Origin: Candidatus Limnocylindrales bacterium
Lineage (GTDB): Bacteria; Chloroflexota; Limnocylindria; Limnocylindrales; CSP1-4
DNA: 64,000 bases
Assembly: GCA_035699445.1 (NCBI GenBank)
Contig: DASSPX010000031.1
Span: forward strand, 10,570 to 74,569
Reading direction: 5' to 3'
The position numbers and the translations under genes are program-made. The first letter of the stretch is position 1. Every line of letters begins with the position of its first letter. Below the pieces are notes generated by a model that saw nothing but the letters and a program-made list of their open reading frames with translations, did not search any database and was not told the origin of the DNA. Below, piece after piece: positions 4,400 to 22,071 of this stretch.

Positions 4400-5192
4400 C
4401 GGGCTGGCGATCGAGGCGACGCGGTCGTCGGGGGCGACGCACCCTCCGCCGACCGCGCCGTCGGGCCCGGTGCTTTTCGCGCGCTATGCGTACGGTCCGA
4501 ACCGCCTCGGGCTGTGCGGTCCCGATGCGGCCGCCTCGCTGTTCGGCGAGAGCACCGAGGGTGGGGACGAGCGCGAGCTGCGCCGACTGGCGGCCGGCTT
4601 CGATGGGGCATTCCCGTACCTGGAGCTGATCGCGCGCGCAAACGGCATCGCCGACCCACTCGACGCCCGGGTCGTGGATGCCTACTGGCTGGGCAGCAGC
4701 CTGCTGGCGCGGGTCAGCGCGGACGAGCTCGCCTCGTCGCTGGCGGTGCGCTTCCGGCCGCGGCTCGACGAGCCCGCCTGGCGGTGGCTTCGGGCATCGG
4801 CGCCCGCGGGCGCGAAGCCCGTGCACGCGTTCCACGTCCTCGACGTGTTCCCGAAGGTCGGGTTGCTGCGCAGCGGCCACGTGGGACGGGTGGTCGAGAT
4901 GATGGACCGCTGCCGGATCCGGTGGGGTCGCATGCGGGCGCGCGACGGCGACCAGCTCGTGGTCGACGCGGTGCCGCTGGGAATGGTCGACGGCCGCCTG
5001 GCGCTCCTTCCGCCGCGGGTCGAGCGGGTCACGGGCTGGCGGGATGGTCGGGGGTTCGTGAACGACGTCGCGCCGGGCGACGTCGTGTCGATCCACTGGG
5101 ACTGGGCCTGCGAGACGCTCTCGCCGGCACGCCTGCGGCGGCTCGTCGAGTGGACGCGGGGGCAGCTCGAGGTCGCGAACCTGTCGGTCTAG
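4389..5192 (+). CDS. conserved hypothetical protein, translationally coupled to the hydrogenase/hypC/EamA genes
   Basis: 267-aa ORF with a motif-like stretch 'ARYAYGPNRLGLCGP'. The start (ATGATG) overlaps the EamA stop by 11 nt. No family assignment is possible without a search. Confidence 0.6.
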   Translation: MMTDGLAIEATRSSGATHPPPTAPSGPVLFARYAYGPNRLGLCGPDAAASLFGESTEGGDERELRRLAAGFDGAFPYLELIARANGIADPLDARVVDAYWLGSSLLARVSADELASSLAVRFRPRLDEPAWRWLRASAPAGAKPVHAFHVLDVFPKVGLLRSGHVGRVVEMMDRCRIRWGRMRARDGDQLVVDAVPLGMVDGRLALLPPRVERVTGWRDGRGFVNDVAPGDVVSIHWDWACETLSPARLRRLVEWTRGQLEVANLSV

Positions 5193-6159: not shown

Positions 6160-7941
<1,782 letters not shown>

Positions 7942-7974: not shown

Positions 7975-9909
7975 TCAGGATGCCGAACCGACGGGCGTCG
8001 GTCGGGCGAGCAGTCGGGTCGCGGCCCGGCGGCGATCGAGCGATCGCCGCTGTTCATGGATGTCGCGCTGGACGAGGAGCAGCCGCTGCACCTCCTCGCG
8101 ATCCCCCCGTCGCTCGGCGTCCGCCTGCTCGTCGGCCAGCCAGGACATCCGTCCGGCGAGCGCATCGAACTCGAGCTCCAGCACGAGGCGCTCGATGTCG
8201 TACGCGAGGTCCCGGTCGTCCAGCTCGCGCGGGCTCGGGCCGCCCCGCGACATCACCGCATCGGCGAGCACGCGCGTCTCGGGGTCGAGCGACTCGCGAA
8301 GCGCCGACACGGAAAGCGGCGGGCGGATGCCGCGGTCGTCCGGTGCGCAGGCGGTGACGATCGCCCGGAACAGCTCCCGGGCCAGCTGCGAGGGCAGCGC
8401 ATCCGGGCCGAGCGCATCGAGCACCCGGTCGTGGGACTCCGGCACGAGCAGCGCGATCCGGAGCAGCTCCGCCTCCTCGGGCGTGATCGCGCGCAGGATG
8501 TCGTCCACGGGCAGCGCATCGGGAGCCGCGAGGACCGCGTCCGCCGTGATCCGCCGGCCGTCACGACCTTCGCGCTGGGGCATCCGCTCGAGTCGCGTGA
8601 GCGACTCGCGCAGGGTGCGCTCCTCGACGCCTGACGCCTGGCGCACTGCGGCGAGGTACGTGTCCCGCATCACGGGGTTGGGCAGGTTCCGGATCGTGGG
8701 CAGGACCGCATCGACGAAGCGGGTCTTGCCGCCGGCCGTGCGCAGGTCGTGGGCGCGGGCATGGACGTCGATCAGGTGGTCGACGATCGGGCGCGCCGTG
8801 CGAACCTCCTCGCGCCACCGGTCGGGCTCGTCCCGGAGCACCTCGTCGGGGTCCTTGCCCTCCGGCAGGCGGACGATCCGCACGTCGTCGAGCTCGACGC
8901 CGCTGTCGTCGCGGGCGAGCTGACGGATGAGCTCCTCGAGCGCGGCCGCACCCAGCGCGCCGGCCTTCTCGCCCGCGGCGTCGACGTCGTACGCGAGCGC
9001 GATCCGCGTCGTGTACCGGGTGAGCAGGCCGACCTGCTGCGGCGTCAGCGCCGTGCCGAGCGAGGCGACGACGTTCTCGAAGCCCGCCTGGTGCGCCATG
9101 AGCGCGTCCGTATAGCCCTCGACGATCACCGCCTGGTCGGCCTTGCGCATCGCGGACTTCGCGCGGTCGATGAGGTACAGCGTGCGGCTCTTGTCGAAGA
9201 TCGGCGTGGCGGGGGAGTTCAGATACTTCGGACCTTCGCCGTCGCGGTCCTCTCCCGGCAGGATGCGCCCGCCCATCCCGACCGCGTGACCGGAGAGATC
9301 CCGGATCGGGAACATCACCCGGTTCCGGAAATAGTCGTAGGCCCCGCCGCCGCGCTGCCGCGGACGCGCCAGGCCCACCTCGATCAGCTCGCCCGCGTCG
9401 ACCTGCCGCTTCGCCGCGAGTTGCCGGACGAGGTGGTCCCAGCCGTTGGGAGCGAACCCGAGCTGGTGGGTGGCGATCGTCGCGTCCGTGAAGCCACGCC
9501 CACGGAGGTAGTCGAGCGCGGGCTGGCCCGCCTTCGAGCCCGTGAGGACCGCGTGGTAGAACGCGACGGCCGCCTCCATCACGTCGCGTCGGCGTGCGTT
9601 GCGGATGTCCTCGCGCGAGCGCCGCTCGTCGAGCTCCACGCCGGCGCGCGGGGCGAGCAGCCGGATGGCCTCGGGAAACGACAGTCCGTCGCGCTCCATG
9701 ACGAACGTGAAGATGTCGCCGTGCTTGCCGCAGCCGAAGCAGTGCCACGTCCCGCGGACGGGGGTCACGGTGAACGACGGAGTCTTCTCGCCGTGGAACG
9801 GGCACAGCCCCTTCAGGATGGATCCCGCCTTCCGCAGGGTGACCGTCTCGCCGACGATCTCCTCGACGGGCAGGCGGGCCTTGATCTCGGCGCTCGCGGA
9901 AGCGGCCAA
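7975..9909 (-). CDS. dnaG: DNA primase DnaG
   Basis: Zn-finger 'CPFHGEKTPSFTV..WHCFGCGKHGD' and TOPRIM 'VIVEGYTDAL'. The longest ORF starts at 9972, but TTG at 9909 preceded by GGAGCAGGAGA gives a canonical N-terminus ('AASASAEIKARLPVEEIV'). Confidence 0.9.
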   Translation of the reverse strand: MAASASAEIKARLPVEEIVGETVTLRKAGSILKGLCPFHGEKTPSFTVTPVRGTWHCFGCGKHGDIFTFVMERDGLSFPEAIRLLAPRAGVELDERRSREDIRNARRRDVMEAAVAFYHAVLTGSKAGQPALDYLRGRGFTDATIATHQLGFAPNGWDHLVRQLAAKRQVDAGELIEVGLARPRQRGGGAYDYFRNRVMFPIRDLSGHAVGMGGRILPGEDRDGEGPKYLNSPATPIFDKSRTLYLIDRAKSAMRKADQAVIVEGYTDALMAHQAGFENVVASLGTALTPQQVGLLTRYTTRIALAYDVDAAGEKAGALGAAALEELIRQLARDDSGVELDDVRIVRLPEGKDPDEVLRDEPDRWREEVRTARPIVDHLIDVHARAHDLRTAGGKTRFVDAVLPTIRNLPNPVMRDTYLAAVRQASGVEERTLRESLTRLERMPQREGRDGRRITADAVLAAPDALPVDDILRAITPEEAELLRIALLVPESHDRVLDALGPDALPSQLARELFRAIVTACAPDDRGIRPPLSVSALRESLDPETRVLADAVMSRGGPSPRELDDRDLAYDIERLVLELEFDALAGRMSWLADEQADAERRGDREEVQRLLLVQRDIHEQRRSLDRRRAATRLLARPTPVGSAS

Positions 9910-9973
9910 CCGGTCTCCTGCTCCCCGGGGCGGATGCCCCTTCCTCGTCCGGCGACGGCCCGGAACGACCAAG

Positions 9974-10078: not shown

Positions 10079-11848
10079 CTACCCGGTTCCGGACCCTACC
10101 GCGAGCGGATCGACGGCCCCGGCCGACGAGCCGCGAGGCGCCGATGCCTCGCCCGCGATCGAGCGCGCGACGGCCGCCGTCGAGGCGGCGAGCGCGCGCG
10201 TGGCGAGACCCCGGCAGGTCTCGGCGTCGAGCTCCGCCAGTCGCGCGCGGACGGTCCGGATCGCGGATGGTGTCACGCTCAGCTGGTCCACTCCGAGCCC
10301 GACGAGCAGCGGGATGAGCGCCGGGTCGGCGGCGGCCTCGCCACACACCGCGACGTGACCGCCGGCCGCTCGCGCCGCCCGTACGACACCGTCGATCAGC
10401 CGCAGGACCGAGGGCTGGAAGGCCGTCGCCAGGTCGACGAGGTCGGGGTTCGTGCGATCGGCGGCGAGCGTGTACTGGACGAGGTCGTTCGTGCCGATCG
10501 AGAAGAAGTCGGCGGCCGGGGCCAGCGCGTCGGCCATGATCGCCGCCGACGGCACCTCGATCATCACGCCCACCTGGATCCGCGCAGGCACCGGTCGGCC
10601 GCGCTGGACCAGCGCACGATGGACGTCGTCGAGGCGCTCCCGCGCCGCATCGAGCTCCTCGCGCGTGGACACCATCGGCAGCATCAGGCGAAGCTCCGCG
10701 CCGGCGGTCGCCTCTAGGAGCGCCGTCAGCTGGTCATCGAGCAGCGCCGAGCGACGCAGCCCGAGCCGGAGGCCGCGCACTCCGAGCGCCGGGTTGGCCT
10801 CGTTGGCCGGCTGCCACGCGGCAGGCTTGTCGCCGCCGACGTCGAGCGTGCGGAACACGACCGGCCGCCCGCCCATCGCGGCCTGGATCCCGCGGTACGC
10901 CGCGCGCTGCTCCGCGACGGTCGGCGGCGCGTGCCGTCCGAGGAACACGAGCTCGGTGCGGACGAGCCCGATCCCGTCCGCTCCGGCGGCGGCCGCCGCC
11001 TCGGCCTCGCGCGCGGACGCGACGTTCGCGACGACGCCGACGCGGGGGCCGGCTCCGGGGCTCGATGCGCCACTGGCCGCGCTCCCGACCCGCCCGCCGA
11101 CATCCGCCGGAGCCCGGAGCGCGGCCAGCTCCTCCGGTGCCGGCGCGATGAGCAGCCGCCCGCCGGACCCGTCAACAGCCCCGTCGACGTCCTCGACGAG
11201 CGCATCGATCGCCGGACCGAGCCCCAGGACGAGCGGGATGCCGAGCGCACGCGCGACGATGACCGCGTGGCCGGTCGGGGCGCCGTCGGCAAGCGCGATC
11301 CCGCCCACGAGCTCCGCACGAAGCGTGGCCACGGTGGACGGGTCGAGGTCACGGGCGACGATGATCGCCGGGTGGCCGTCGAGACGCCACAGGTCGGGCG
11401 GCGCCTCCCCGCGGACGTGGCTGGCCACCCGTCGGCCCAGGTCGCGGACGTCCGCGGCGCGCTCACGGAAGTACTCGTCGTCCACCGAGGCGAGGCGCTG
11501 GGCCTGCTCGTCGGTGGCCCGCAGGATCGCCTCGTGGGCGGCACAACCATCGGCGACGAGGGCGAGCGCGGGGTCCACGATGCCAGGGTCGCGTGCGAAC
11601 AGCGCCTGGGCCTCGAAGATCGCGCCGATCTCCTCCCCTGCCCGCTCCGAGAGCCGGGCTGCGAGTTGCTCGAGCTCGGCGGCAGCCGCCTCGAGCGCCG
11701 CCGCGAGCCGGTCGCGCTCGGACGACGGCGAGGCCGGGGCGCCGCCCGCGGGGGTCGGGCCTTCGACCTCGGCGGGACGGACCGCCAGCAGGCGTCCCGT
11801 GCCGAGACCAGGAGACCCGGGCCGGCCGACGAGGATCGCGCTGGCCAT
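10079..11848 (-). CDS. ptsI: phosphoenolpyruvate-protein phosphotransferase (PTS Enzyme I)
   Basis: Phospho-His region 'TGHAVIVARALGIP' and PEP-utilising motif 'SIGTNDLVQYTLAADR'. Confidence 0.9.
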   Translation of the reverse strand: MASAILVGRPGSPGLGTGRLLAVRPAEVEGPTPAGGAPASPSSERDRLAAALEAAAAELEQLAARLSERAGEEIGAIFEAQALFARDPGIVDPALALVADGCAAHEAILRATDEQAQRLASVDDEYFRERAADVRDLGRRVASHVRGEAPPDLWRLDGHPAIIVARDLDPSTVATLRAELVGGIALADGAPTGHAVIVARALGIPLVLGLGPAIDALVEDVDGAVDGSGGRLLIAPAPEELAALRAPADVGGRVGSAASGASSPGAGPRVGVVANVASAREAEAAAAAGADGIGLVRTELVFLGRHAPPTVAEQRAAYRGIQAAMGGRPVVFRTLDVGGDKPAAWQPANEANPALGVRGLRLGLRRSALLDDQLTALLEATAGAELRLMLPMVSTREELDAARERLDDVHRALVQRGRPVPARIQVGVMIEVPSAAIMADALAPAADFFSIGTNDLVQYTLAADRTNPDLVDLATAFQPSVLRLIDGVVRAARAAGGHVAVCGEAAADPALIPLLVGLGVDQLSVTPSAIRTVRARLAELDAETCRGLATRALAASTAAVARSIAGEASAPRGSSAGAVDPLAVGSGTG

Positions 11849-11857
11849 CGTCGTGGC

Positions 11858-12505
11858 TCAGTTGCCCGCCGCGTCGGCGAGCGCGCGCAGGAGCAGCGCC
11901 GCGGACGTGGCGCCGGGGTCCTGATGGCCGATCGAACGCTCGCCGAGGTACGACGCGCGTCCCTTTGTCGCTAGCATCGGGATGGTGGCTCGCACCCCTG
12001 CCTCGGCAGCTTCGGCGATCGCACGGGTCACGGCGACCGAATCGGCACCCGCGGTGAGTGCCTCCCGGCCGGCCGTGGCCGCCGGGACAAGGGCGTCGAG
12101 CATCGTCTTCTCGCCGGTCGTGGCCTTGCCGAGTGACGTGATCCCCCCGATTCCCGCGTCCAGCGCGTCGACCAGGAGCTCGGACGCCGGACGCGAGCCG
12201 TCGGCCGCGACGACGGCACCGCCCGCCCGCATGAGCGCCGTGCCGTAGAGGGGTCCCGAGGCGCCGCCCACGGTGCTGATCAGCGTCCGACCGGCGACCC
12301 GCAGGATCGCGCCCGCGACCGCCGTCTCGCCGTCCCCGTCAGGACGCGGCCCGTCCAGCGCGGCAACGATGGCGGAGAACCCACGGTCCATGTTCGTGCC
12401 GTGGTCGCCGTCCCCGATCGCCTGGTCGAGCGCGGTCAGGGCCCCCGCCTGTTCGTGGATGCGCGCCGCGGCCAGCCGCAGCCACGCCTCGATGACGTCG
12501 ATCAT
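11858..12505 (-). CDS. dhaL: dihydroxyacetone kinase ADP-binding subunit DhaL
   Basis: 215 aa; the 'GDGDHGTNM' Mg-nucleotide motif lies 30 aa from the N-terminus (DAK2 domain). Confidence 0.9.
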   Translation of the reverse strand: MIDVIEAWLRLAAARIHEQAGALTALDQAIGDGDHGTNMDRGFSAIVAALDGPRPDGDGETAVAGAILRVAGRTLISTVGGASGPLYGTALMRAGGAVVAADGSRPASELLVDALDAGIGGITSLGKATTGEKTMLDALVPAATAGREALTAGADSVAVTRAIAEAAEAGVRATIPMLATKGRASYLGERSIGHQDPGATSAALLLRALADAAGN

Positions 12506-12630: not shown

Positions 12631-13653
12631 TCACGCGCCCCACCGGAGGGCGGGCGTGTGGACCGGCGCGTCCCACCAGCGGACGACGTCGTCGTCGAGG
12701 CGCAGCAACGTGACCGAGAACCCGGCCATCTCGAGGCTCGTGATGTAGTTGCCCACGAGCGAGCGCTCGATCGAGATGCCCTGCCCGCCGAGGATCCTCG
12801 CCACGCTGTTGAACGCGACGTAGAGCTCGATGAGCGGTGTGCCGCCCATGCCGTTGACGAACGCGAGGACTCGGTCGCCGCGACCCAGACCCAGGTCGCC
12901 GACGATCGGCGAGACCAGCCACTCGGCCATGTCGTCGACCGGAGCGAGCTTCTCGCGCCGTCGACCCGGCTCGCCGTGGATGCCGATCCCGACCTCGACC
13001 TCGTCATCGGCCAGGTCGAACGTCGGCGTTCCGGCGGCCGGCACGACGCAGGAGGTGAGCGCGAGGCCCATCGAGCGACCCTGCGTGTTCACCTTCGTGG
13101 CCGTGGCCGTCACCTCGGCGAGCGAGCCGCCCGCCTCGGCATGTGCACCGGCGATCTTCTCAAGCAGGACCGTCACGCCGACGCCCCGGCGTCCGGCCGT
13201 GTACAGCGAATCCTGGACGGCGACGTCGTCGTTCGTGACCACGCTCGCGACCTCGATCTCGCCCGCCACGAGCTCCGCGGCGAGCTGAAAGTTGAGGACG
13301 TCGCCGGTGTAGTTCTTCACGATGTGGAGCACGCCCGCTCCGCCATCCACAGCGCGCGTGGCGGCCTCCATCTGGTCGGGCACCGGGGACGTGAACACGT
13401 TGCCGGCACATGCCGCGTCGAGCATGCCCAGGCCCACGAAGCCGCCGTGGAGCGGCTCGTGCCCGGAGCCGCCGCCCGAGACGAGGGCGACCTTGCCCCG
13501 CCGCGGGCCGCCGGCCCGCAGGACGACATTGTTCCGGGCGTCGATCGTCACGAGGTCTGGATGCGCGGCCTGAAGGCCCGCGAGGCTCTCGGGGACGATG
13601 GCGTCCACGGCGTTGATGAGCTTCTTCACCCGGCTGGGTGCGTTGGTGGCCAT
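12631..13653 (-). CDS. dhaK: dihydroxyacetone kinase subunit DhaK
   Basis: Internal ATG at 13653 with AGGAGGG 6 nt upstream. Protein starts '[14 protein letters not shown]' and has the 'GGGSGHEP' motif. The longer ORF extension (to 14262) overlaps glpF and is rejected. Confidence 0.9.
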
Positions 13654-13691: not shown

Positions 13692-14477
13692 TCAGGCGTC
13701 GGCGGTGGCCCGGTCGCGGACCGGAGCGGATGCGGTGACGGCCGCGGGCGCCTCGCGCCCGATGAACTCGTAGAGGAATGCACCCACCACGCCGCCGATC
13801 GTCGAGCCGAAGACGTACACGACGAGCAGCTGGTCGACGGGCACCGGGGTGGCCCCGATCGCCTGGCCGAGGATGGCCGGGCCGAGCTCGCGGGCGGGAT
13901 TCAGTGACGCGCCCGTGATGGGCCCGACGAGGATGATGATCCCGTAGACGATGAAGCCGATGATCAGCCCTGCGAACCCGGCAGGCGCCTTGCCCGACAC
14001 GGCAGCCCCGAAGACGGTGAACACGAGGATCGCGGTACCGATCACCTCGGCCGCGAAGCCGATCGCGAGCCCGGCGTTCGCGTTCACCGAGACGGCGCCC
14101 AGGCCGAGCGCCGCGGGATCGTTGCCCTGCAGGATGATCAGTGTGAGCCCGGCGCCGAGGAATGCGCCGACGAGCTGGGCGGCGATGTAGCTGCCCGCGG
14201 TCCGTGCGTCGATCCGGCGCGTGGCGAGCAGCGAGATCGTGACCGCGGGATTGATGTGGCACCCGCTGATGTGTCCGATCGAGTACACGGCCGCGAAGAT
14301 CGCGAACGCGAACGAGAAGGAGATCGTGGACAGGCCGGCCGTGCCGTCGATGCCCGTGCCGCCGGCACCGGCGGTCAGGAACACCGTGAGCGGCACCGAG
14401 CCGGCACCGATGAATACGAGGATCGCAGTGCCGATGGCCTCGGCGGTCAGCTTCTGCGCAAGGGTGGGCGATGACAT
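13692..14477 (-). CDS. glpF: MIP-family glycerol/DHA facilitator
   Basis: Two NPA boxes ('NPAVT', 'NPAREL') and six hydrophobic segments. Confidence 0.9.
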
Positions 14478-14510: not shown

Positions 14511-14780
14511 TCAGCCGGCTGCGCTGACGTAGGGGGCGAGTTCCGCCGCGAGCGCCGTGAGGGCCTCCTCCGCGTCGGGGCCCTCCGCGGCAAGCGTGAT
14601 CTCGGACGACGGGCGGATCGTCAGGCCGAGGAGGGCGATGAGACTCTTCGCGTCGGCCTCGCGGCCGTCGTCGCGGATGACGATGCGACTCGTGAACCGG
14701 GTTGCCGTCTGGACGAACTTCGCCGCCGGGCGCGCATGGAGCCCGGCCGGATCGATGACGAGCAGTCGAACCTCCGCCAC
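14511..14780 (-). CDS. HPr-family phosphocarrier protein
   Basis: 89 aa with the 'GLHARPA' active-site His region. Confidence 0.85.
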
Positions 14781-14782
14781 CG

Positions 14783-15190
14783 TCAGCTCCCCGCGAACTT
14801 GGTCATCGTCGCGGCGCCCTCCGCCGCGGCCATGACCTCGTCGATCGACGCGCCGACGCTCGCCTGGACGGCGGCAAGCACCGCCCCCTCCACGATCGGT
14901 GCGCTGCTGATGCGGACGCGAGCCCGCTCCTCCGGCTCGAGCTCCTCGCAGGCGAGCTCGAGGCTGAGCGCGGCGCTGCCAAGGTCGAGCAGCACGAGGA
15001 CGTCGGACGCGCCCGCGCCGAGCACGGACCGCATCGCCGCGGCGATGCGCGGTGCGCTCGTGCCGAGACGTCCGTCCTCGGTGCCGCCGGCCGTGGCCAC
15101 CGAAACGGAGTCACCGGCGACCTGGACGACCATGTCGCGCAGGCCCTCGACGAGGGTTCCGCTGTGGGACACGAGGACCAGACCCACCAA
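14783..15190 (-). CDS. dhaM: PTS EIIA(Man)-like phosphotransferase subunit DhaM (EIIA domain only)
   Basis: Starts '[11 protein letters not shown]' with the typical EIIA-Man/DhaM His. AGGAGG lies 5 nt upstream of the TTG start. Confidence 0.8.
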
Positions 15191-15242
15191 CCATGCCTCC
15201 TCTCAGTACCCGTTGGGATGGCGGCGATGCTGGACCACGGGT

Positions 15243-15272
15243 CGTCAAGAACCAAGCAAGAGCGCGTCAAGA
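15243..15272. promoter_or_regulatory. direct repeat CGTCAAGA x2 (22-bp phasing) in the divergent dhaM / DhaL-paralogue control region
   Basis: CGTCAAGA at 15243-15250 and 15265-15272, inside the least GC-rich stretch of the 238-bp intergenic region. Confidence 0.35.
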
Positions 15273-15428
15273 GATGCGGAAAAGGTGCGGCCGCGTGCCG
15301 CCGGCGGCCCCGGACCCGTTACCGACCGGTGACGGCGACGCCTACACTCGCCGACCGTGACGCCGCTCGCGCGCTCCCCTGCCGCACCGCTCCCGGCCTC
15401 GACGTCGCCGGCACCGCAGCCCGGGCCG

Positions 15429-16052
15429 GTGATCGACGCGCCCGCAGTGCGGGCCGCCCTGAGGCGCTGCTGCCGGATCGTCGAGCGCCATGCGGCCTGG
15501 CTGACGCGCCTCGATGCGGTGCTCGGTGACGGTGACCATGGCGACAACCTCGTCATCGGCTTCCGGGCCGTGGACGCGATGCTCGCCGAGCTGCCGGAGG
15601 ACGTGCCACCCGGGGAACTGCTGCGCGCTGTCGGGCACCGGCTCGTGGCGGCCGTGGGCGGGGCATCGGGGCCGCTGTACGGCACCGCCTTCCTGGAGGC
15701 GGGCGCCGTGCTCGGCGACGCGCCGACGGCCGCCGCGGACCAGCTCGGCCCGATGCTCTCGGCCGCGGCTGCCGGCCTGGCGCGACGCGGACGGTGCGCC
15801 ATCGGCGACAAGACGATCCTCGACACGATCGGGCCGGCCGCGCATGTTCTTGAGCGCGAGCTGGCAGCCGGGGCGCCGCCGGACCGCGCGTACGGAGCCG
15901 CCGTGCGGGCCGGGGCGCGAGGCATGTGGTCCACCCGGCCGCTCGTCGCCCGACGTGGACTGGCGATGCGCCTGGGCGAGCGAGCGATCGGGCAACTCGA
16001 TCCGGGTGCGGTGTCGTGCCTCCTCCTGCTGCGCGCGTTCGGCGACGACTGA
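15429..16052 (+). CDS. DAK2-domain protein (second, stand-alone DhaL paralogue)
   Basis: 'GDGDHGDNL' motif. A GTG start at 15429 gives 'VIDAPAV..', collinear with DhaL 'MIDVIEAW..'. The longest ORF starts at 15357. Confidence 0.8.
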   Translation: MIDAPAVRAALRRCCRIVERHAAWLTRLDAVLGDGDHGDNLVIGFRAVDAMLAELPEDVPPGELLRAVGHRLVAAVGGASGPLYGTAFLEAGAVLGDAPTAAADQLGPMLSAAAAGLARRGRCAIGDKTILDTIGPAAHVLERELAAGAPPDRAYGAAVRAGARGMWSTRPLVARRGLAMRLGERAIGQLDPGAVSCLLLLRAFGDD

Positions 16053-16059
16053 CCCGTCG

Positions 16060-17694
16060 ATGAGCGAGCGCGCCACGCTGCAGGCACGGATCGAGGCGCT
16101 GCAGGCGCGGGCCGACGCGTTGCACGCCCGGGTCGAGTCACTGGAGCGCGAACGGCGGCGGTCGTTCGACGAGGCCCAGCGGGAGGCCGACTCGCTGTTC
16201 GCCCAGTACCAACTGAGCCAGCTGCTGGCATCCGGCGGCTCCCTGCCTGAGCTCGCTGCCGCCGTCCTGTCGGAGCTGGTCCGCCTGGCCGGCGCCGCGG
16301 CCGGTGCGCTGTGGCTCGGTGCCGACGGGACGGACCGGCTGGACTGCGTCGCCCAGGTCGGTACGGCACGCACCGGCGGTCAGGCGCTCGTCCTGTCCGA
16401 CGAGGCGCCCCAGACGGTCCTTGTCGTGTGGCCGGTCGAGGGCCGCGTCCTCGACGAGGACGGGCTGCGGGTCGCGCAGCTCGCCCGGCACGAGCTCGCG
16501 GTCGCGTTCGCCGGCGCGCGCCTTCGCGAGGCGTTCGAGCAGGAGCGACACGAGCTGGAGGCCATCGTCGACGGGTCGACCGACCTCATCGTCCAGGTGG
16601 ACGCGGATGGCTCGGTGGTGCGCCTCAACCCGGCGGGTGAGCAGCTGCTGGGGGTCAGCGCCGCGACGGCCCTCGGACGACCGTGCGTCGATGTCCTCGG
16701 GTGCGAGGTCGCCGGCGCCCACGCGGCGTCCGCGTGCCCGCTGGCAGAGGCACTCGCCACCGGGGTGCCCATCGCGTACCGCGAGTCCGCTGTCCGCGGC
16801 GCGGCCGGGTCGCCCGTGCGGGTCGCAGGCAGCTACGCCGCCGCCTCGGGAATCGGGACCGCTCGCGCGACCGCCATCCTGCGCGACATGAGCGCCGTGC
16901 GGGCGCTCGAGGAGCTTCGGGAAGGTTTTGTCGCGACCGTGAGCCACGAGCTCCGGACCCCGCTCGCGCTCATCCGCGGCTACACGGAGACGCTGCTCCA
17001 TCTCGATCTCGAGCCCGACCGGCAGCGCGCGTTCGTCGAACGGATCGATGAGGCGACCAATCGGCTCGTGTCGCTCGTCGACCAGGTCCTCGACGTGACG
17101 CATCTCCAGGCGGATCCCCTCATCCTCGAGCGGTCGCCGACGACGTTCGCCACGCTCGCGGCACGGCTCCGCGGGGACCTCGACGTCGCCGGCGGAGCGG
17201 AACGGCTGGTCGTCACCGCGCCCGGCGACCTGCCGCCGGTCAGCGTCGACGTCGCGCGCGTGAGTCAGATCCTGGCCAACATCGTCGGCAACGCGCTCAA
17301 GTACGCCCCGGCCGGAACGCCGGTCGTGCTGGGTGCCGAGGCGGCCGACGGGTGGCTCACCGTGAGCGTGGACGACGAAGGGGTCGGCGTACCGGAGGAG
17401 GATCGATCGCTCGTGACCGAGCCCTTCCACCGCGCCTGGAACGTCCGTGAATCGCGCATTCCGGGAACGGGCCTCGGCCTGTTCATCAGCCGCCGCCTCG
17501 TGGAGGCGCACGGGGGCCGGCTCGCCCTGGGCGATCGGCCGGACGGCCGGCCGGGAACGCGGGTGACGTTCACGCTGCCGCTCGCAGGGGCCGAGACATC
17601 GGTCGCCGGTCCGACGGTCGCCGGTCCGTCTCCGCGCGCCGGGTCGCCGGTTGCATCCGCCCCGCTCTCCGCCGAGGCCGACAGCCGTGACTGA
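16060..17694 (+). CDS. soluble sensor histidine kinase (coiled-coil, GAF-like, PAS, HisKA, HATPase_c)
   Basis: H-box 'VSHELRTPL', N/G boxes 'GNALKYAP' and 'GTGLGLFISRRLVEAHGG', PAS-like 'LEAIVDGSTDLIVQVDADGSVVRLNPAGEQLLG'. I saw no hydrophobic TM segment. Confidence 0.9.
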   Translation: MSERATLQARIEALQARADALHARVESLERERRRSFDEAQREADSLFAQYQLSQLLASGGSLPELAAAVLSELVRLAGAAAGALWLGADGTDRLDCVAQVGTARTGGQALVLSDEAPQTVLVVWPVEGRVLDEDGLRVAQLARHELAVAFAGARLREAFEQERHELEAIVDGSTDLIVQVDADGSVVRLNPAGEQLLGVSAATALGRPCVDVLGCEVAGAHAASACPLAEALATGVPIAYRESAVRGAAGSPVRVAGSYAAASGIGTARATAILRDMSAVRALEELREGFVATVSHELRTPLALIRGYTETLLHLDLEPDRQRAFVERIDEATNRLVSLVDQVLDVTHLQADPLILERSPTTFATLAARLRGDLDVAGGAERLVVTAPGDLPPVSVDVARVSQILANIVGNALKYAPAGTPVVLGAEAADGWLTVSVDDEGVGVPEEDRSLVTEPFHRAWNVRESRIPGTGLGLFISRRLVEAHGGRLALGDRPDGRPGTRVTFTLPLAGAETSVAGPTVAGPSPRAGSPVASAPLSAEADSRD

Positions 17695-18475
17695 GACGAT
17701 CCTCATCGTCGAGGACGAGCCCGAGTTCAGCGAGCTCGTCGAGCTGTGGATGACCCGGGCCGGGTACCGGGCGGTCGCCGCCCGCACCGGCCCGGACGGC
17801 CTGCGCCGGTTCTACGACGAGCGGCCCGACCTCGTGATCCTCGATGTCGCGCTGCCGGGGCTGGACGGCTGGCAGCTGATCGAGCGGATCCGGGAGTTCA
17901 GCCGCGTGCCGATCCTCATGGTCACGGCGCGGGGCTCGGAGGCCGAGAAGGTGCGCGGCCTGAAGCTCGGTGCGGACGACTACATCACGAAGCCCCTGAG
18001 CCTCCCGGAGCTGACGGCGCGCGTGGAGGCCGCGCTCCGGCGGGCGGCAACGGCCGCGCCCGAGCGACCGACCCGGCTCCGCCACCGCGATCTGGTCGTG
18101 GACCTGGACGACCACCGCGCCCACCTGCGAGGGACCGAGGTGCGGCTGACGCCCACGGAGTTCCGGCTGCTCGCGTACCTCGTGCAGCACGCGGGACAGC
18201 TGGCGACGCACCGCCAGATCCTGGGGGCCGTCTGGGGATCGGGCTACGACCGCGATGTCCACCTGCTCCGGATGACGATCCGGAATCTGCGGTTGCGGCT
18301 CGACGCCGCCGCGCCCGGCGAGACGTACATCACGACCGAGTACGGGCTCGGGTATCGACTCGCGGGGCAACAGGCTGCAGCCGCGAGCCCCTCGACCGGC
18401 CCGCGGCCTACCCTTGGCGCGAACGGCGACAGCGAGGCGGAAGGGGCGAGCGATGACCGACACCGTGGTTCGTGA
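17687..18475 (+). CDS. OmpR/PhoB-family response regulator
   Basis: Receiver 'ILIVEDEPEF..DLVILDVALPGLDG..KP' and winged helix 'LTPTEFRLLAYL..EYGLGYRL'. GTG start overlaps the kinase stop (GTGACTGA). Confidence 0.9.
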   Translation: MTETILIVEDEPEFSELVELWMTRAGYRAVAARTGPDGLRRFYDERPDLVILDVALPGLDGWQLIERIREFSRVPILMVTARGSEAEKVRGLKLGADDYITKPLSLPELTARVEAALRRAATAAPERPTRLRHRDLVVDLDDHRAHLRGTEVRLTPTEFRLLAYLVQHAGQLATHRQILGAVWGSGYDRDVHLLRMTIRNLRLRLDAAAPGETYITTEYGLGYRLAGQQAAAASPSTGPRPTLGANGDSEAEGASDDRHRGS

Positions 18476-19970
18476 GATCGAGCAGGCACGCGACGAGATC
18501 GCCCGCCTCCGGCTGCGCACGCAACCGTTCATCGCCGGCGAGTTCCGCGACGTGATCGGCGGCGCCCGGTACGTCACGGAGAACCCCGCCACCGGACAGC
18601 CGATCACCGAGGTCGCGCAGGGCGGCCCGGCGGACGTCGATCTCGCGGTCGCGGCCGCGCGTGAAGCCGCCGACGACGGGCGCTGGTCGCGGATGAGCCC
18701 GGGCGGCCGGAAGCGGATCCTCCTGCGCTGGGCCGATCTCATCGACGCCCACGCCCGCGAGCTGGGGCTGATCGAGACGATCGACGCCGGCAAGCCCATC
18801 TCGGACACGATCGAGCTGGACATGCCCGAGACGGCGGCCTGCATCCGCTGGCACGCCGAGGCGACCGACAAGCTGTACGGGCAGGTCGCGCCGTCACCGG
18901 AGGGCACGGTGGCGACGATCACCCGGGAGCCGATGGGGGTCGTCGGCGCCGTCATTCCCTGGAACTACCCGGCCCAGATGGCGGCCTGGAAGCTGGGGCC
19001 GGCACTCGCCACCGGCAACACCGTGGTCATCAAGCCCGCCTCGATGACCTCGCTCAGCCTGCTCCGGATCGCCGAGCTCGGCGCCCAGGCCGGGCTCCCG
19101 GCGGGGGTGCTCAACGTCGTGACCGGGCCGGGCGACACCGTGGGCGAGGCGATCGGCCGTCACCCCGACATCGACTGCGTCGCGTTCACGGGCTCGACGG
19201 AGGTGGGCCGGCGGTTCCTGACCTACTCGGCCGAGTCGAACCTCAAGCGCGTCAAGCTCGAGCTCGGCGGCAAGAGCCCCCAGATCGTGTTCGGCGACGT
19301 GGACGACCTGGCCCACGTCGCGTCGAACGTCGCGGTCGCGATCTTCTGGAACATGGGCGAGAACTGCTCGGCCGGCTCGCGCCTGATCGTCCACCGCTCT
19401 CGCAAGGACGCGCTGCTCGAGGCGATCGAGGCGGAGCTCGCGGCCTGGCCGGTGGGCGATCCGCTCGATCCCGCGACGAAGATCGGCGCGCTCATCTCGC
19501 GCGGCCACCTCGAGCGGGTGCTCGGGTACGTGGATGTCGCCCGCGCCGAGGGCGCGCGCGTCGTGAGCGGCGGGCGGCGGATCCTCGAGGACACGGGCGG
19601 GTACTTCGTGCCGCCGACCGTGCTCGACGGCGTCCGGAACGACATGCGGGTCGCGCGCGAGGAGATCTTCGGACCGGTGCTGTCGGTGATCGAGTTCGAC
19701 ACCGAGGCCGAGGCGGTCGCGATCGCGAACGACACGCCGTACGGGCTGGCCGCGTCGCTGTACACGAACGACCTCAACGTGGCCCACCGGGTCGCGCGCG
19801 ACCTGCGCGCCGGCGTCGTGGGCGTGAATGCCTATTCCGAGGGCGACATGACGACGCCGTTCGGCGGCTACAAGCAGTCGGGCTTCGGCGGCCACGACAA
19901 GTCGATCCACGCGCACGACCAGTACACCGAGCTGAAGACGACCTGGATCAACGTCCGCCCGCGTACCTGA
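18453..19970 (+). CDS. NAD(P)-dependent aldehyde dehydrogenase
   Basis: 'ELGGKSP' and catalytic-Cys region 'NMGENCSAGSR'. The ATG at 18453 overlaps the regulator's 3' end by 23 nt. Confidence 0.9.
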   Translation: MTDTVVREIEQARDEIARLRLRTQPFIAGEFRDVIGGARYVTENPATGQPITEVAQGGPADVDLAVAAAREAADDGRWSRMSPGGRKRILLRWADLIDAHARELGLIETIDAGKPISDTIELDMPETAACIRWHAEATDKLYGQVAPSPEGTVATITREPMGVVGAVIPWNYPAQMAAWKLGPALATGNTVVIKPASMTSLSLLRIAELGAQAGLPAGVLNVVTGPGDTVGEAIGRHPDIDCVAFTGSTEVGRRFLTYSAESNLKRVKLELGGKSPQIVFGDVDDLAHVASNVAVAIFWNMGENCSAGSRLIVHRSRKDALLEAIEAELAAWPVGDPLDPATKIGALISRGHLERVLGYVDVARAEGARVVSGGRRILEDTGGYFVPPTVLDGVRNDMRVAREEIFGPVLSVIEFDTEAEAVAIANDTPYGLAASLYTNDLNVAHRVARDLRAGVVGVNAYSEGDMTTPFGGYKQSGFGGHDKSIHAHDQYTELKTTWINVRPRT

Positions 19971-21084: not shown

Positions 21085-22071
21085 ATGGACGCGAACGGCC
21101 ATCGCCAACGGACGGTCGCTGCCCTGATCGGCGAGGGTGTCCTTACCTTCGACTTCGCGTGCGCGTGTGAAGTCTTCGGGTACGACCGCTCCGACATCGT
21201 TCGGCCCTGGTACCGCTTCCTGGTCGTCTCGCAGGACCCGCCGCCGATTCGCTCGTCGACCGGGTTCCTGCTCTCGCCCGAGCTTGGCCTCGACGCGCTC
21301 GAGGATGCGGACACGATCGTCATCCCGGGCTGGGCCGACGACCTCCGGCCGCCGCGTCCCGAGACGATTGCCGCCCTCCGACGCGCCTACGACCGAGGTG
21401 CGCGGCTGATGTCGATCTGCATCGGCTCGTTCGTGCTGGCTGCGACCGGTCTGCTCGACGGTCGGCGCGCGACGACGCATTGGCGGTTCGCCGAGCAGCT
21501 GAAGACGAGGTTTCCGGCGATCGACGTCGACCCGGACGTCCTGTACATCGACGAGGGACAAATCCTCACCTCCGCGGGGACGGCGGCAGGGATCGACCTG
21601 GGCCTGCACGTCGTGCGCCTGGACTACGGCGCGTCGATCGCGAACCAGGTGGCGCGGCGGATCGTGATGCCGCCCCATCGCGACGGCGGACAGGCGCAGT
21701 ACATCGAGGCGCCGGTCGCGGTCGTCAAGGACGGCGACCCGATCCGCGGCACGCTCCGGTGGATCCTCGAGCACCTGGGCGACGAGATGAGCGTCGACGA
21801 CCTCGCCACACGCGCCGCGATGAGCCCGCGGTCCTTCGCCCGCCACTTCAAGGCGACGACGGGAAGCACGCCGCACGACTGGATCCTTCGCCAGCGCCTG
21901 CAGCTCGCGCAGCGGCTGCTCGAGACAACTGACCTGCCGCTCGAGCACATCGCCGACCGCGCGGGGTTCGGGGCGGCGGTGACGATGCGTCACCACTTCG
22001 CGCAGCGTCTCCGAACTTCGCCGCAGGCATACCGGCGGACGTTCCGCTCGTCCGCGCCGCCACCCGCCTGA
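21085..22071 (+). CDS. GlxA-type transcriptional regulator (DJ-1/PfpI domain + AraC HTH)
   Basis: N-terminal amidotransferase-like domain ('SICIGSFVLAATGLLDGRRATTHW') and C-terminal AraC HTH ('MSPRSFARHFKATTGSTPHDWILRQRL'). Confidence 0.85.
   Translation: MDANGHRQRTVAALIGEGVLTFDFACACEVFGYDRSDIVRPWYRFLVVSQDPPPIRSSTGFLLSPELGLDALEDADTIVIPGWADDLRPPRPETIAALRRAYDRGARLMSICIGSFVLAATGLLDGRRATTHWRFAEQLKTRFPAIDVDPDVLYIDEGQILTSAGTAAGIDLGLHVVRLDYGASIANQVARRIVMPPHRDGGQAQYIEAPVAVVKDGDPIRGTLRWILEHLGDEMSVDDLATRAAMSPRSFARHFKATTGSTPHDWILRQRLQLAQRLLETTDLPLEHIADRAGFGAAVTMRHHFAQRLRTSPQAYRRTFRSSAPPPA

Follow-up and report, generated by a model that had tools for sequence, protein, structure and literature searches.

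A DhaL paralogue and a two-component system encoded opposite a dihydroxyacetone kinase operon

We analyzed a 64-kb stretch of high-GC DNA (73%) from contig DASSPX010000031.1, hereafter the window, in which a complete operon for a phosphotransferase system (PTS)-dependent dihydroxyacetone (DHA) kinase diverges from genes for a stand-alone paralogue of the kinase subunit DhaL, here called DhaL2, a soluble histidine kinase and an OmpR/PhoB-family response regulator. The closest relatives of the window are metagenome-assembled genomes labelled Candidatus Limnocylindrales or "uncultured Chloroflexia", Limnocylindrales being an order of the class Limnocylindria in the phylum Chloroflexota. The module formed by DhaL2, the kinase and the regulator looks like a previously undescribed way of switching on the dha operon, confined to one uncultured class.

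The DHA kinase operon occupies the minus strand in the order dhaM-HPr-glpF-dhaK-dhaL-ptsI, with all domain calls on the window proteins taken from Pfam. Its first gene, dhaM (14783–15190), encodes the EIIA-man type phosphotransfer subunit (EIIA-man) and is followed by genes for HPr (14511–14780; PTS-HPr), a glpF-type channel (13692–14477; MIP) and the DHA-binding subunit DhaK (12631–13626; Dak1, 7e-125), which retains 80–92% identity in relatives. Next comes the canonical dhaL (11858–12505), encoding the ADP-binding subunit, which carries the invariant GRASYLG motif and matches both Dak2 (2.3e-48) and TIGR02365 (216.6 bits, cut-off 138.3). The last gene, ptsI (10079–11848; PEP-utilisers_N, PEP-utilizers, PEP-utilizers_C), encodes enzyme I (EI) and is kept in relatives.

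On the plus strand, DhaL2 (15357–16052; Dak2, 1.5e-41; conserved core from 15429) is followed by the gene for a histidine kinase of 544 amino acids (16060–17694; PAS_4, HisKA and HATPase_c), the response regulator gene (17687–18475; Response_reg and Trans_reg_C) and the gene for an NAD-type aldehyde dehydrogenase (ALDH; 18453–19970; Aldedh, 5.9e-168; PuuC-like match below cut-off). These genes are tightly packed: the DhaL2 stop codon, TGA at 16050–16052, is separated from the kinase ATG at 16060 by a 7-nt gap, the kinase and regulator genes overlap by 8 nt within GTGACTGA, and the regulator and ALDH genes overlap by 23 nt, given an ALDH start at ATG 18453. Rereading the three junctions gave the same values as an earlier sequence-only reading of this DNA, and eight of the ten sequence observations made there held; the number of repeats in the spacer between the two operons and the length of that spacer had to be revised, as described below.

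Conservation of the module from the DhaL2 side and from the kinase side

A survey from the DhaL2 side took in one genome for each of 185,579 species and yielded 80 loci, which we annotated by tblastn with the window proteins. The DhaL2 clade comprises 12 of these loci (L001–L009, L014, L015 and L022), all from Chloroflexota, with 52–84% DhaL2 identity, and in every one of the 12, as far as the contig reaches, dhaM is encoded opposite to DhaL2, the kinase sensor, the kinase core and the regulator, which share a strand. Near canonical dhaL genes of other phyla (≤48% identity), the kinase sensor was found in 0 of about 71 loci. Approached from the kinase side, the DhaL2-kinase arrangement is shared by all three of the most distant homologues examined, and a metagenome scan starting from the kinase sensor found DhaL2 directly upstream in 10 of 10 loci with upstream DNA and the regulator downstream in 11 of 11 loci reaching far enough. 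In total, the triad with its divergent dha operon recurs in every related locus that could be read, namely the nearest relative, 12 loci from genomes and 13 from metagenomes, and all of these are Limnocylindria-type Chloroflexota. The gene calls of relatives show the same 7-nt gap and 8-nt overlap, and across loci the spacing between DhaL2 and kinase typically ranges from a few nucleotides to about 140 nt. The sequence-only reading had set the loss of this adjacency in related genomes beforehand as a refuting outcome, and we observed instead that the adjacency is kept in every readable locus, from whichever of the two genes the locus was approached.

Apparent fusions of Dak2 and kinase (P0196, P0201, P0212, P0233, P0250, P0329 and P0349) were rejected as Rosetta-stone evidence, as they contain frameshifted stretches typical of long-read assemblies and attest adjacency only. 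Frameshifts are common in the long-read metagenome assemblies of this lineage (ERZ250395xx; loci L001, L014, L022 and L084–L086), where genes are split or neighboring genes fused.

The ALDH gene had been described as a member of a four-gene unit, a grouping that is not kept in relatives outside the window's own close lineage: it is missing 3′ of the regulator in all loci except the window and its nearest relative (L100/L101, 96% DhaL2 identity), whose contig ends just past the same ALDH start codon, and the genes found in its place vary. An exact-sequence look-up of the ALDH returned no match. On this distribution, the ALDH is a recent local addition, a lineage-specific passenger outside the conserved module. 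At 4400–4440 of L100, a 1-nt indel gives the regulator a different C-terminus and a different junction with the ALDH gene.

The facing operon is reordered in L009 and L015 (1–9000), where dhaM is followed by a DhaL-type gene, a MIP-like gene, dhaK and a second DhaL-type gene, with another dhaM-like gene further off. Counting DhaL2, three Dak2 genes are thus present in each of these two genomes, and no (T/G)CAAGA boxes of the kind described below occur in the spacers.

DhaL2 forms a small clade with two otherwise invariant residues replaced

DhaL2 shares 40% identity with the window's own DhaL and passes the DhaL family models (Dak2, 142.6 bits, cut-off 27; TIGR02365, 168.3 bits, cut-off 138.3), and its best match in the PDB is E. 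coli DhaL (3pnl_B, 2btd; E 2.5e-27). The nucleotide-Mg motif previously ascribed to a stand-alone DAK2 protein is indeed present in DhaL2, as LGDGDHGDN. We aligned 12 DhaL2-clade sequences with 82 canonical DhaLs from many phyla, E. coli included, and found the Mg/nucleotide motifs to be common to both groups, with D30, D35, D37, H38, GGASG 77–81, K128-T129 (DKT) and DPGA 191–194 each at least 90% conserved (E. coli numbering here and below). The two groups are separated by the paired replacements R178L and Y181R, carried by all 12 DhaL2 sequences and by none of the 82 canonical DhaLs, among which Arg178 and Tyr181 are 100% invariant; the canonical KGRASYLG motif reads RGLA(M/L)RLG in DhaL2. 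Other changes in the clade include K176R, R44I, I33L, M130I, A123C and several gained arginines.

The DhaL2 clade is small. In an exhaustive hidden Markov model search of 1.84 billion representative proteins, the GLA[ML]RLG signature occurred in 8 of the best 150 representatives, and the scores below these belonged to canonical GRASYLG proteins. Among the best 18 representatives, the full-length proteins comprise 6 with GLA[ML]RLG and 2 canonical ones (ranks 12 and 15), and the DhaL2-type scores end there.

DhaL2 is also set apart by its location, as it does not share an operon with dhaK or dhaM and lies on the opposite strand, coupled to the kinase, with the canonical dhaL beside dhaK. A canonical dhaL is found in the facing operon in 11 of 11 of the 12 DhaL2 genome loci whose contig reaches far enough, and because of its presence there DhaL2 would be redundant for catalysis. 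A distinct clade in which two invariant residues have been replaced fits a non-catalytic role of DhaL2.

Outside the DhaL2 clade, a few Dak2 proteins (P0288, P0289, P0304, P0365, P0373 and P0378) keep Arg178 and have Tyr181 replaced by Arg, giving KGRASRLG or KGRAMRLG. These proteins may be other DhaL paralogues with altered function.

A soluble GAF-PAS kinase and its OmpR/PhoB-family regulator

Together, the kinase and regulator carry all the sequence hallmarks of a classical two-component system, namely an H-box, a HATPase_c domain, a receiver Asp pocket and a winged helix. The H-box of the kinase, SHELRTPL (His296), lies in HisKA (3.6e-17) and is followed by HATPase_c (4.1e-25); in the regulator, Response_reg (8e-28) contains the expected EDE...ILD...T...K residues and precedes Trans_reg_C (4e-20) and a non-conserved C-terminal tail of about 35 amino acids. 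As had been claimed, the kinase has no hydrophobic segment, its highest 19-residue Kyte-Doolittle mean being 1.49. The best NCBIfam match of the regulator is PhoB (TIGR02154), at 183.9 bits under a cut-off of 296.2, and the kinase scores 155.1 bits against the PhoR equivalog TIGR02966, whose cut-off is 334.2. With both equivalog cut-offs missed and a kinase lacking a membrane segment, the module does not appear to be a member of the PhoR/PhoB phosphate regulon system.

The proposed layout of the sensor region, with a coiled coil, a GAF-like domain and a PAS domain, was borne out by AlphaFold2, Foldseek and Pfam, which together give a long N-terminal helix, a small GAF fold and a PAS domain. 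In the AlphaFold2 models (predicted local distance difference test score 92.9 for residues 1–290 and 94.5 for residues 1–170), the predicted elements are an N-terminal helix (residues 2–57), the small GAF (62–141), a linker helix (143–170) and the PAS (175–276). When the N-terminal part was searched with Foldseek, GAF domains were the best matches, with 3cit at the top (template modelling score 0.57–0.64). Sensor conservation is highest in the helices that flank the GAF, reaching 0.91–0.95 in residues 41–60 and 0.92 in residues 141–150, and the GAF sheet is the least conserved part of the sensor (0.44–0.55) and carries indels; a small-molecule pocket in the GAF fits less well with this combination of a variable sheet and conserved flanking helices. 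The sensor family (residues 1–290) is a narrow one: clustering at 90% identity gives 122 clusters among 5.8 billion proteins.

The modeled GAF-linker helix-PAS architecture resembles that of DhaR(N), the corresponding part of the E. coli dha regulator DhaR, and three DhaR(N) chains (4lrx, 4lry and 4lrz) stand at ranks 10, 11 and 20 in a Foldseek search of residues 1–290 against the PDB, among generic PAS/GAF matches.

Three direct repeats overlie the putative dhaM promoter

The spacer between the divergent operons contains three direct repeats of (T/G)CAAGA, at 15245, 15256 and 15267, whose 11-bp phasing and retention in relatives, seen in pattern scans, make the region 15243–15272 a candidate binding site for the regulator. 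CGTCAAGA is present at 15243 and 15265, where the sequence-only reading had placed it; the description as two copies with 22-bp phasing gave way when a third copy, AAGCAAGA, was found at 15254, and the CAAGA cores at 15246, 15257 and 15268 follow an exact 11-bp period. Read on the dhaM strand, the boxes of the window are TCTTGAC-N4-TCTTGCT-N4-TCTTGAC. The 64-kb window holds a single copy of the triple repeat, and none of 100 dinucleotide-preserving shuffles contained it, even when one mismatch was allowed. The boxes are kept, with some degeneracy, in all 16 closer relatives scanned and are weak in a 17th, L014.

Across 19 loci, the order of elements on the dhaM strand is constant: the boxes, with consensus TCTTGA(C/T), 4 nt, (C/T)CTTGCT, 4 nt, TCTTGA(C/T), are followed after 10–12 nt by a GAsnAT hexamer and, after a further 25–55 nt, by a strong AAAGGAGG ribosome-binding site and the dhaM start codon. 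In the window, the hexamer is CAGCAT (15227–15232, minus strand), the putative −10 element of the dhaM promoter, which reads GAGCAT, GACGAT, GAGGAT or GACCAT in relatives, and the Shine-Dalgarno sequence in front of dhaM, on the strand of that gene, is GAGAGGAGG in place of the AAAGGAGG of the relatives. The hexamer at 15232–15227 is the only conserved A2/T6 candidate between the boxes and the Shine-Dalgarno sequence in the 19 loci, which points to it as the −10 element. With the dhaM promoter assigned in this way, the boxes would lie over its −35 region in a pho-box-like geometry, placed where an OmpR/PhoB regulator would activate. No intrinsic terminator was detected in a generic scan of the spacer region, and no Rfam family matched in 14900–16200.

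For the opposite direction, a putative promoter of the DhaL2 operon consists of TTACCG and TACACT separated by 18 nt (15319–15348, plus strand), with TTGCCG and TACACT kept in L001, L002, L005, L006, L014 and L022. DhaL2 has two candidate starts: GTG 15429, at the onset of protein conservation, and GTG 15357, which lies within a conserved DNA block, TACACTCGnCCGACCGTGAC, 8 nt after TACACT, and is the start codon chosen by gene callers in relatives. This placement suggests a leaderless or near-leaderless DhaL2 transcript and a spacer of 166 bp; the 238 bp given previously holds only for a start at GTG 15429. The TACACTCGnCCGACCGTGAC block is conserved although the roughly 24 codons after it are not, and its conservation as DNA accounts for spurious conserved 'YTRPTVT' N-terminal extensions in database proteins.

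A model for control of the dha operon and its alternatives

We propose that a lineage-specific module of DhaL2, a soluble GAF-PAS kinase and an OmpR/PhoB-type regulator controls the divergent PTS-dependent dha operon, and we put the probability of this reading at about 0.55. Its output side is the firmer part, as the two-component pair probably regulates the dha operon through the three repeats; the phosphorylated regulator would bind the repeats head-to-tail and activate the dhaM promoter as PhoB does at the pho box. For the input side, we regard it as an even bet, by analogy with the E. coli system, that DhaL2 is the direct sensory partner of the kinase. DhaL2 would then act as a non-catalytic gauge, with DhaM~P, itself fed by the operon's own EI and HPr, converting the nucleotide on DhaL2 from ADP to ATP or back, and DHA bound to DhaK would drain this phosphoryl chain and move the DhaL2 balance to the ADP form. 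One nucleotide form of DhaL2 would dock on the helical/GAF-PAS sensor dimer of the kinase, flipping its kinase and phosphatase states via the coiled-coil linker, much as DhaL-ADP acts on the GAF-PAS of E. coli DhaR. The conserved helices around the variable GAF sheet, and the DhaR(N) chains among the structural matches of residues 1–290, lend this docking indirect support. In its fullest form, which we advance tentatively and at somewhat less than even odds, DhaL2 would be a pseudo-enzyme with ADP/ATP as a signalling cofactor that relays the phosphoryl state of a dedicated chain from phosphoenolpyruvate (PEP) through EI, HPr and DhaM directly to a cytoplasmic kinase. The gene-neighborhood and operator evidence is strong; the key mechanistic step, the action of DhaL2 on the kinase, we infer by analogy.

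Several results weigh against this proposal. Aligned by hhalign with E. coli DhaR(1–318), the kinase-sensor profile gave a probability of 4% over 56 columns that cover the start of the PAS only, and DhaR was absent from the best 50 structural matches when the GAF part alone (residues 1–170) was searched with Foldseek. In the three most divergent loci, L008, L009 and L015, no site matched more than 9 of the 18 box positions and the boxes are unrecognizable, nor did aligning the L009 and L015 spacers reveal conserved boxes. The generic scan also found no consensus sigma-70 promoter in the region, the −10 assignment for dhaM falling below that level. In a mirror-tree of 8 taxa, which was not significant, DhaL2 distances, if anything, follow those of DhaM (r 0.81; partial 0.71) more than those of the kinase sensor. 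Lastly, the PAS domain contains a motif, C209-x5-C215-x5-H221-x4-C226 (window 16684–16737), that is invariant in the main clade; in the divergent clade (L008, L009 and L015), the His is replaced and a Cys-x3-Cys pair is present, giving four Cys in the form C-x5-C...C-x3-C. Given the hhalign result and a structural match at the generic PAS/GAF level only, the kinase sensor was rejected as a homologue of E. coli DhaR(N).

To judge from the residues involved, the Cys3His/Cys4 tetrad of the PAS looks like a metal or Fe-S site, which may serve a structural purpose or may be where the kinase actually senses redox state, oxygen or reactive carbonyls. We know of no described equivalent of a Cys3His/Cys4 metal or Fe-S site inside a PAS domain. 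If the kinase senses by itself, through this site or through the GAF, with redox state, oxygen or a reactive carbonyl such as DHA or methylglyoxal as candidate signals, then DhaL2 would be a co-regulated auxiliary or alternative DHA kinase subunit that happens to be first in the operon. In favor of self-sensing, the motif shows the pattern expected of a conserved metal-binding tetrad, invariant in the main clade and Cys4 in L008, L009 and L015; the PAS domains of the best structural matches carry cofactors (such as haem or flavin), and neither sequence nor fold ties the sensor specifically to the part of DhaR that binds DhaL. However, self-sensing leaves unexplained why DhaL2 is coupled to the kinase in every locus when the canonical dhaL is in the facing operon, and why two residues invariant in 82 DhaLs were lost while the nucleotide site was kept. 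The metal site could also be a purely structural zinc, and metal and DhaL2 inputs are not mutually exclusive, as the kinase might integrate a DhaL2 signal with a redox or metal signal from the Cys3His PAS site. On balance, we consider a purely self-sensing kinase unlikely, if far from negligible.

The mirror-tree result, in which DhaL2 distances correlate best with DhaM, would be expected if DhaL2 were a feedback or buffering decoy that competes with DhaL for DhaM~P or DhaK and tunes flux or bistable induction, without contacting the kinase. A protein with its nucleotide site kept and its invariant residues lost would suit such competition, and, according to work on FakA and TKFC (PMC9136124 among it), the cap segment of DhaL over the nucleotide inserts into cavities of both DhaK and DhaM, one capped surface docking on the two partners. 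Yet the correlation comes from 8 taxa and is not significant, and the dha operon would be a more natural place for a decoy gene than a position coupled in translation, genome after genome, to the kinase; we hold this explanation to be rather improbable. An aldehyde-responsive system with the downstream ALDH as its main target, which corresponds to the detoxification proposed in the sequence-only reading and for which the 23-nt overlap with the regulator gene and the ALDH start codon after the regulator in the nearest relative could be cited, is very improbable, because all other loci lack an ALDH after the regulator, with varying genes in its place, and the sole repeat site in the 64 kb lies in the dha spacer. 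Least credible of all is an adjacency without functional meaning, inherited by a few close genomes: every locus belongs to the single class Limnocylindria, which leaves a share to phylogenetic inertia, but order and spacing persist down to 52% DhaL2 and 37–41% kinase-sensor identity with differing flanking genes, and among the distant homologues and metagenome loci examined the kinase-sensor family was never seen without DhaL2.

Comparison with known systems

DHA kinases are textbook "trigger enzymes", whose subunits double as transcriptional co-regulators. In E. coli, DhaL activates and DhaK represses DhaR via its GAF-PAS domain, depending on the nucleotide load of DhaL (as summarized in PMC10084136, citing Shi et al. 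2014 Structure and Bachler et al. 2005 EMBO J). Like that system, the module proposed here has its regulator genes divergent from the dha operon and a cytoplasmic GAF-linker helix-PAS dimer as its predicted sensor, and it would follow the same logic of a DhaL protein serving as a macromolecular effector through its ADP/ATP load. The two differ in that the catalytic DhaL moonlights in E. coli, whereas here the role would fall to a dedicated and diverged paralogue (R178L, Y181R), whose gene accompanies that of the regulator; in that DhaR is a one-component AAA+/Fis-type (HTH_8) activator, whereas here a His-Asp phosphorelay would lead to an OmpR/PhoB regulator; and in that their sensor domains have no detectable specific homology.

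In L. lactis, DhaS is described as having a macromolecular co-activator in the DhaK paralogue DhaQ (Christen et al. 2006 JBC, as summarized in PMC4325133). There, as here, a dedicated paralogue of a DHA kinase subunit is encoded beside the regulator, whose co-activator it is in L. lactis, and the activator site overlaps the −35 region of the dha promoter, which in our case is a predicted arrangement. The L. lactis paralogue derives from DhaK and binds DHA, whereas DhaL2 derives from DhaL, the nucleotide-binding subunit, and DhaS is a TetR-family protein acting on a palindrome, in contrast to the two-component system and direct repeats found here; no TetR-family gene is present among the genes of the module and the operon.

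With PhoB at pho boxes, the regulator and its predicted site share the OmpR/PhoB family and 11-bp tandem direct repeats that stand in for the −35 element, the last of them stopping some 10 nt before the −10. They differ in the PhoB model score (183.9 vs 296.2 required), in the repeat itself (TCTTGAC, not CTGTCAT), and in the number of repeats, which is three rather than two or four, at a site that is here a predicted one.

Control of soluble or PAS-containing histidine kinases by contact with an accessory protein is known for PII with NtrB, PhoU/PstB with PhoR, and EIIA-Ntr with KdpD and PhoR, where a small metabolic or phosphoryl-state protein binds the cytoplasmic part of a HisKA kinase and sets its kinase/phosphatase balance, the signal carried by EIIA-Ntr being the phosphoryl state of the PTS. 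Unlike in these cases, the accessory protein here would be a Dak2-fold pseudo-enzyme carrying ADP or ATP. In its proposed logic the module agrees with these kinases and with the two dha regulators above, yet it is a member of none of these systems. Full-text literature searches turned up no account of a histidine kinase partnered with a DhaL or Dak2 protein.

Two solutions to the control of dha operons by DHA kinase subunits are known, DhaR with DhaL and DhaK in E. coli and DhaS with DhaQ in L. lactis, and a DhaL paralogue acting on a two-component kinase would, if true, be a third, independently invented, and the first with a two-component output. A PTS-type phosphorelay would then feed into a His-Asp phosphorelay by way of a Dak2-fold adaptor, the Dak2 fold with its nucleotide load would prove recruitable as a stand-alone signalling adaptor, and a new class would join the few accessory proteins that act on soluble histidine kinases through contact. 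With its compact size, wholly cytoplasmic proteins and well-defined candidate operator, the module lends itself to in vitro study with four purified proteins. Its host lineage, soil Limnocylindria, is uncultured, abundant and unstudied, and the module offers a first handle on gene regulation there.

Other features of the locus and of more distant loci

Away from the DhaL2 clade, two-component genes also occur in the dha locus of Streptomyces apocyni (L068, 5695–7759), where genes for a response regulator and a histidine kinase immediately precede dhaK in the same orientation. The kinase has no match to the sensor of the present module, and the other Streptomyces loci lack such a pair; the arrangement may be due to chance, or it may be a separate case of dha genes linked to a two-component system.

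In the window itself, upstream of ptsI, we noted by eye from the translations an open reading frame resembling a primase (7975–9972) and another resembling an RpoD-type sigma factor (6160–7941). Downstream of the ALDH gene, the translation of an open reading frame at 21085–22071, likewise judged by eye, resembles a DJ-1/PfpI-AraC regulator of the GlxA/FtrA type.

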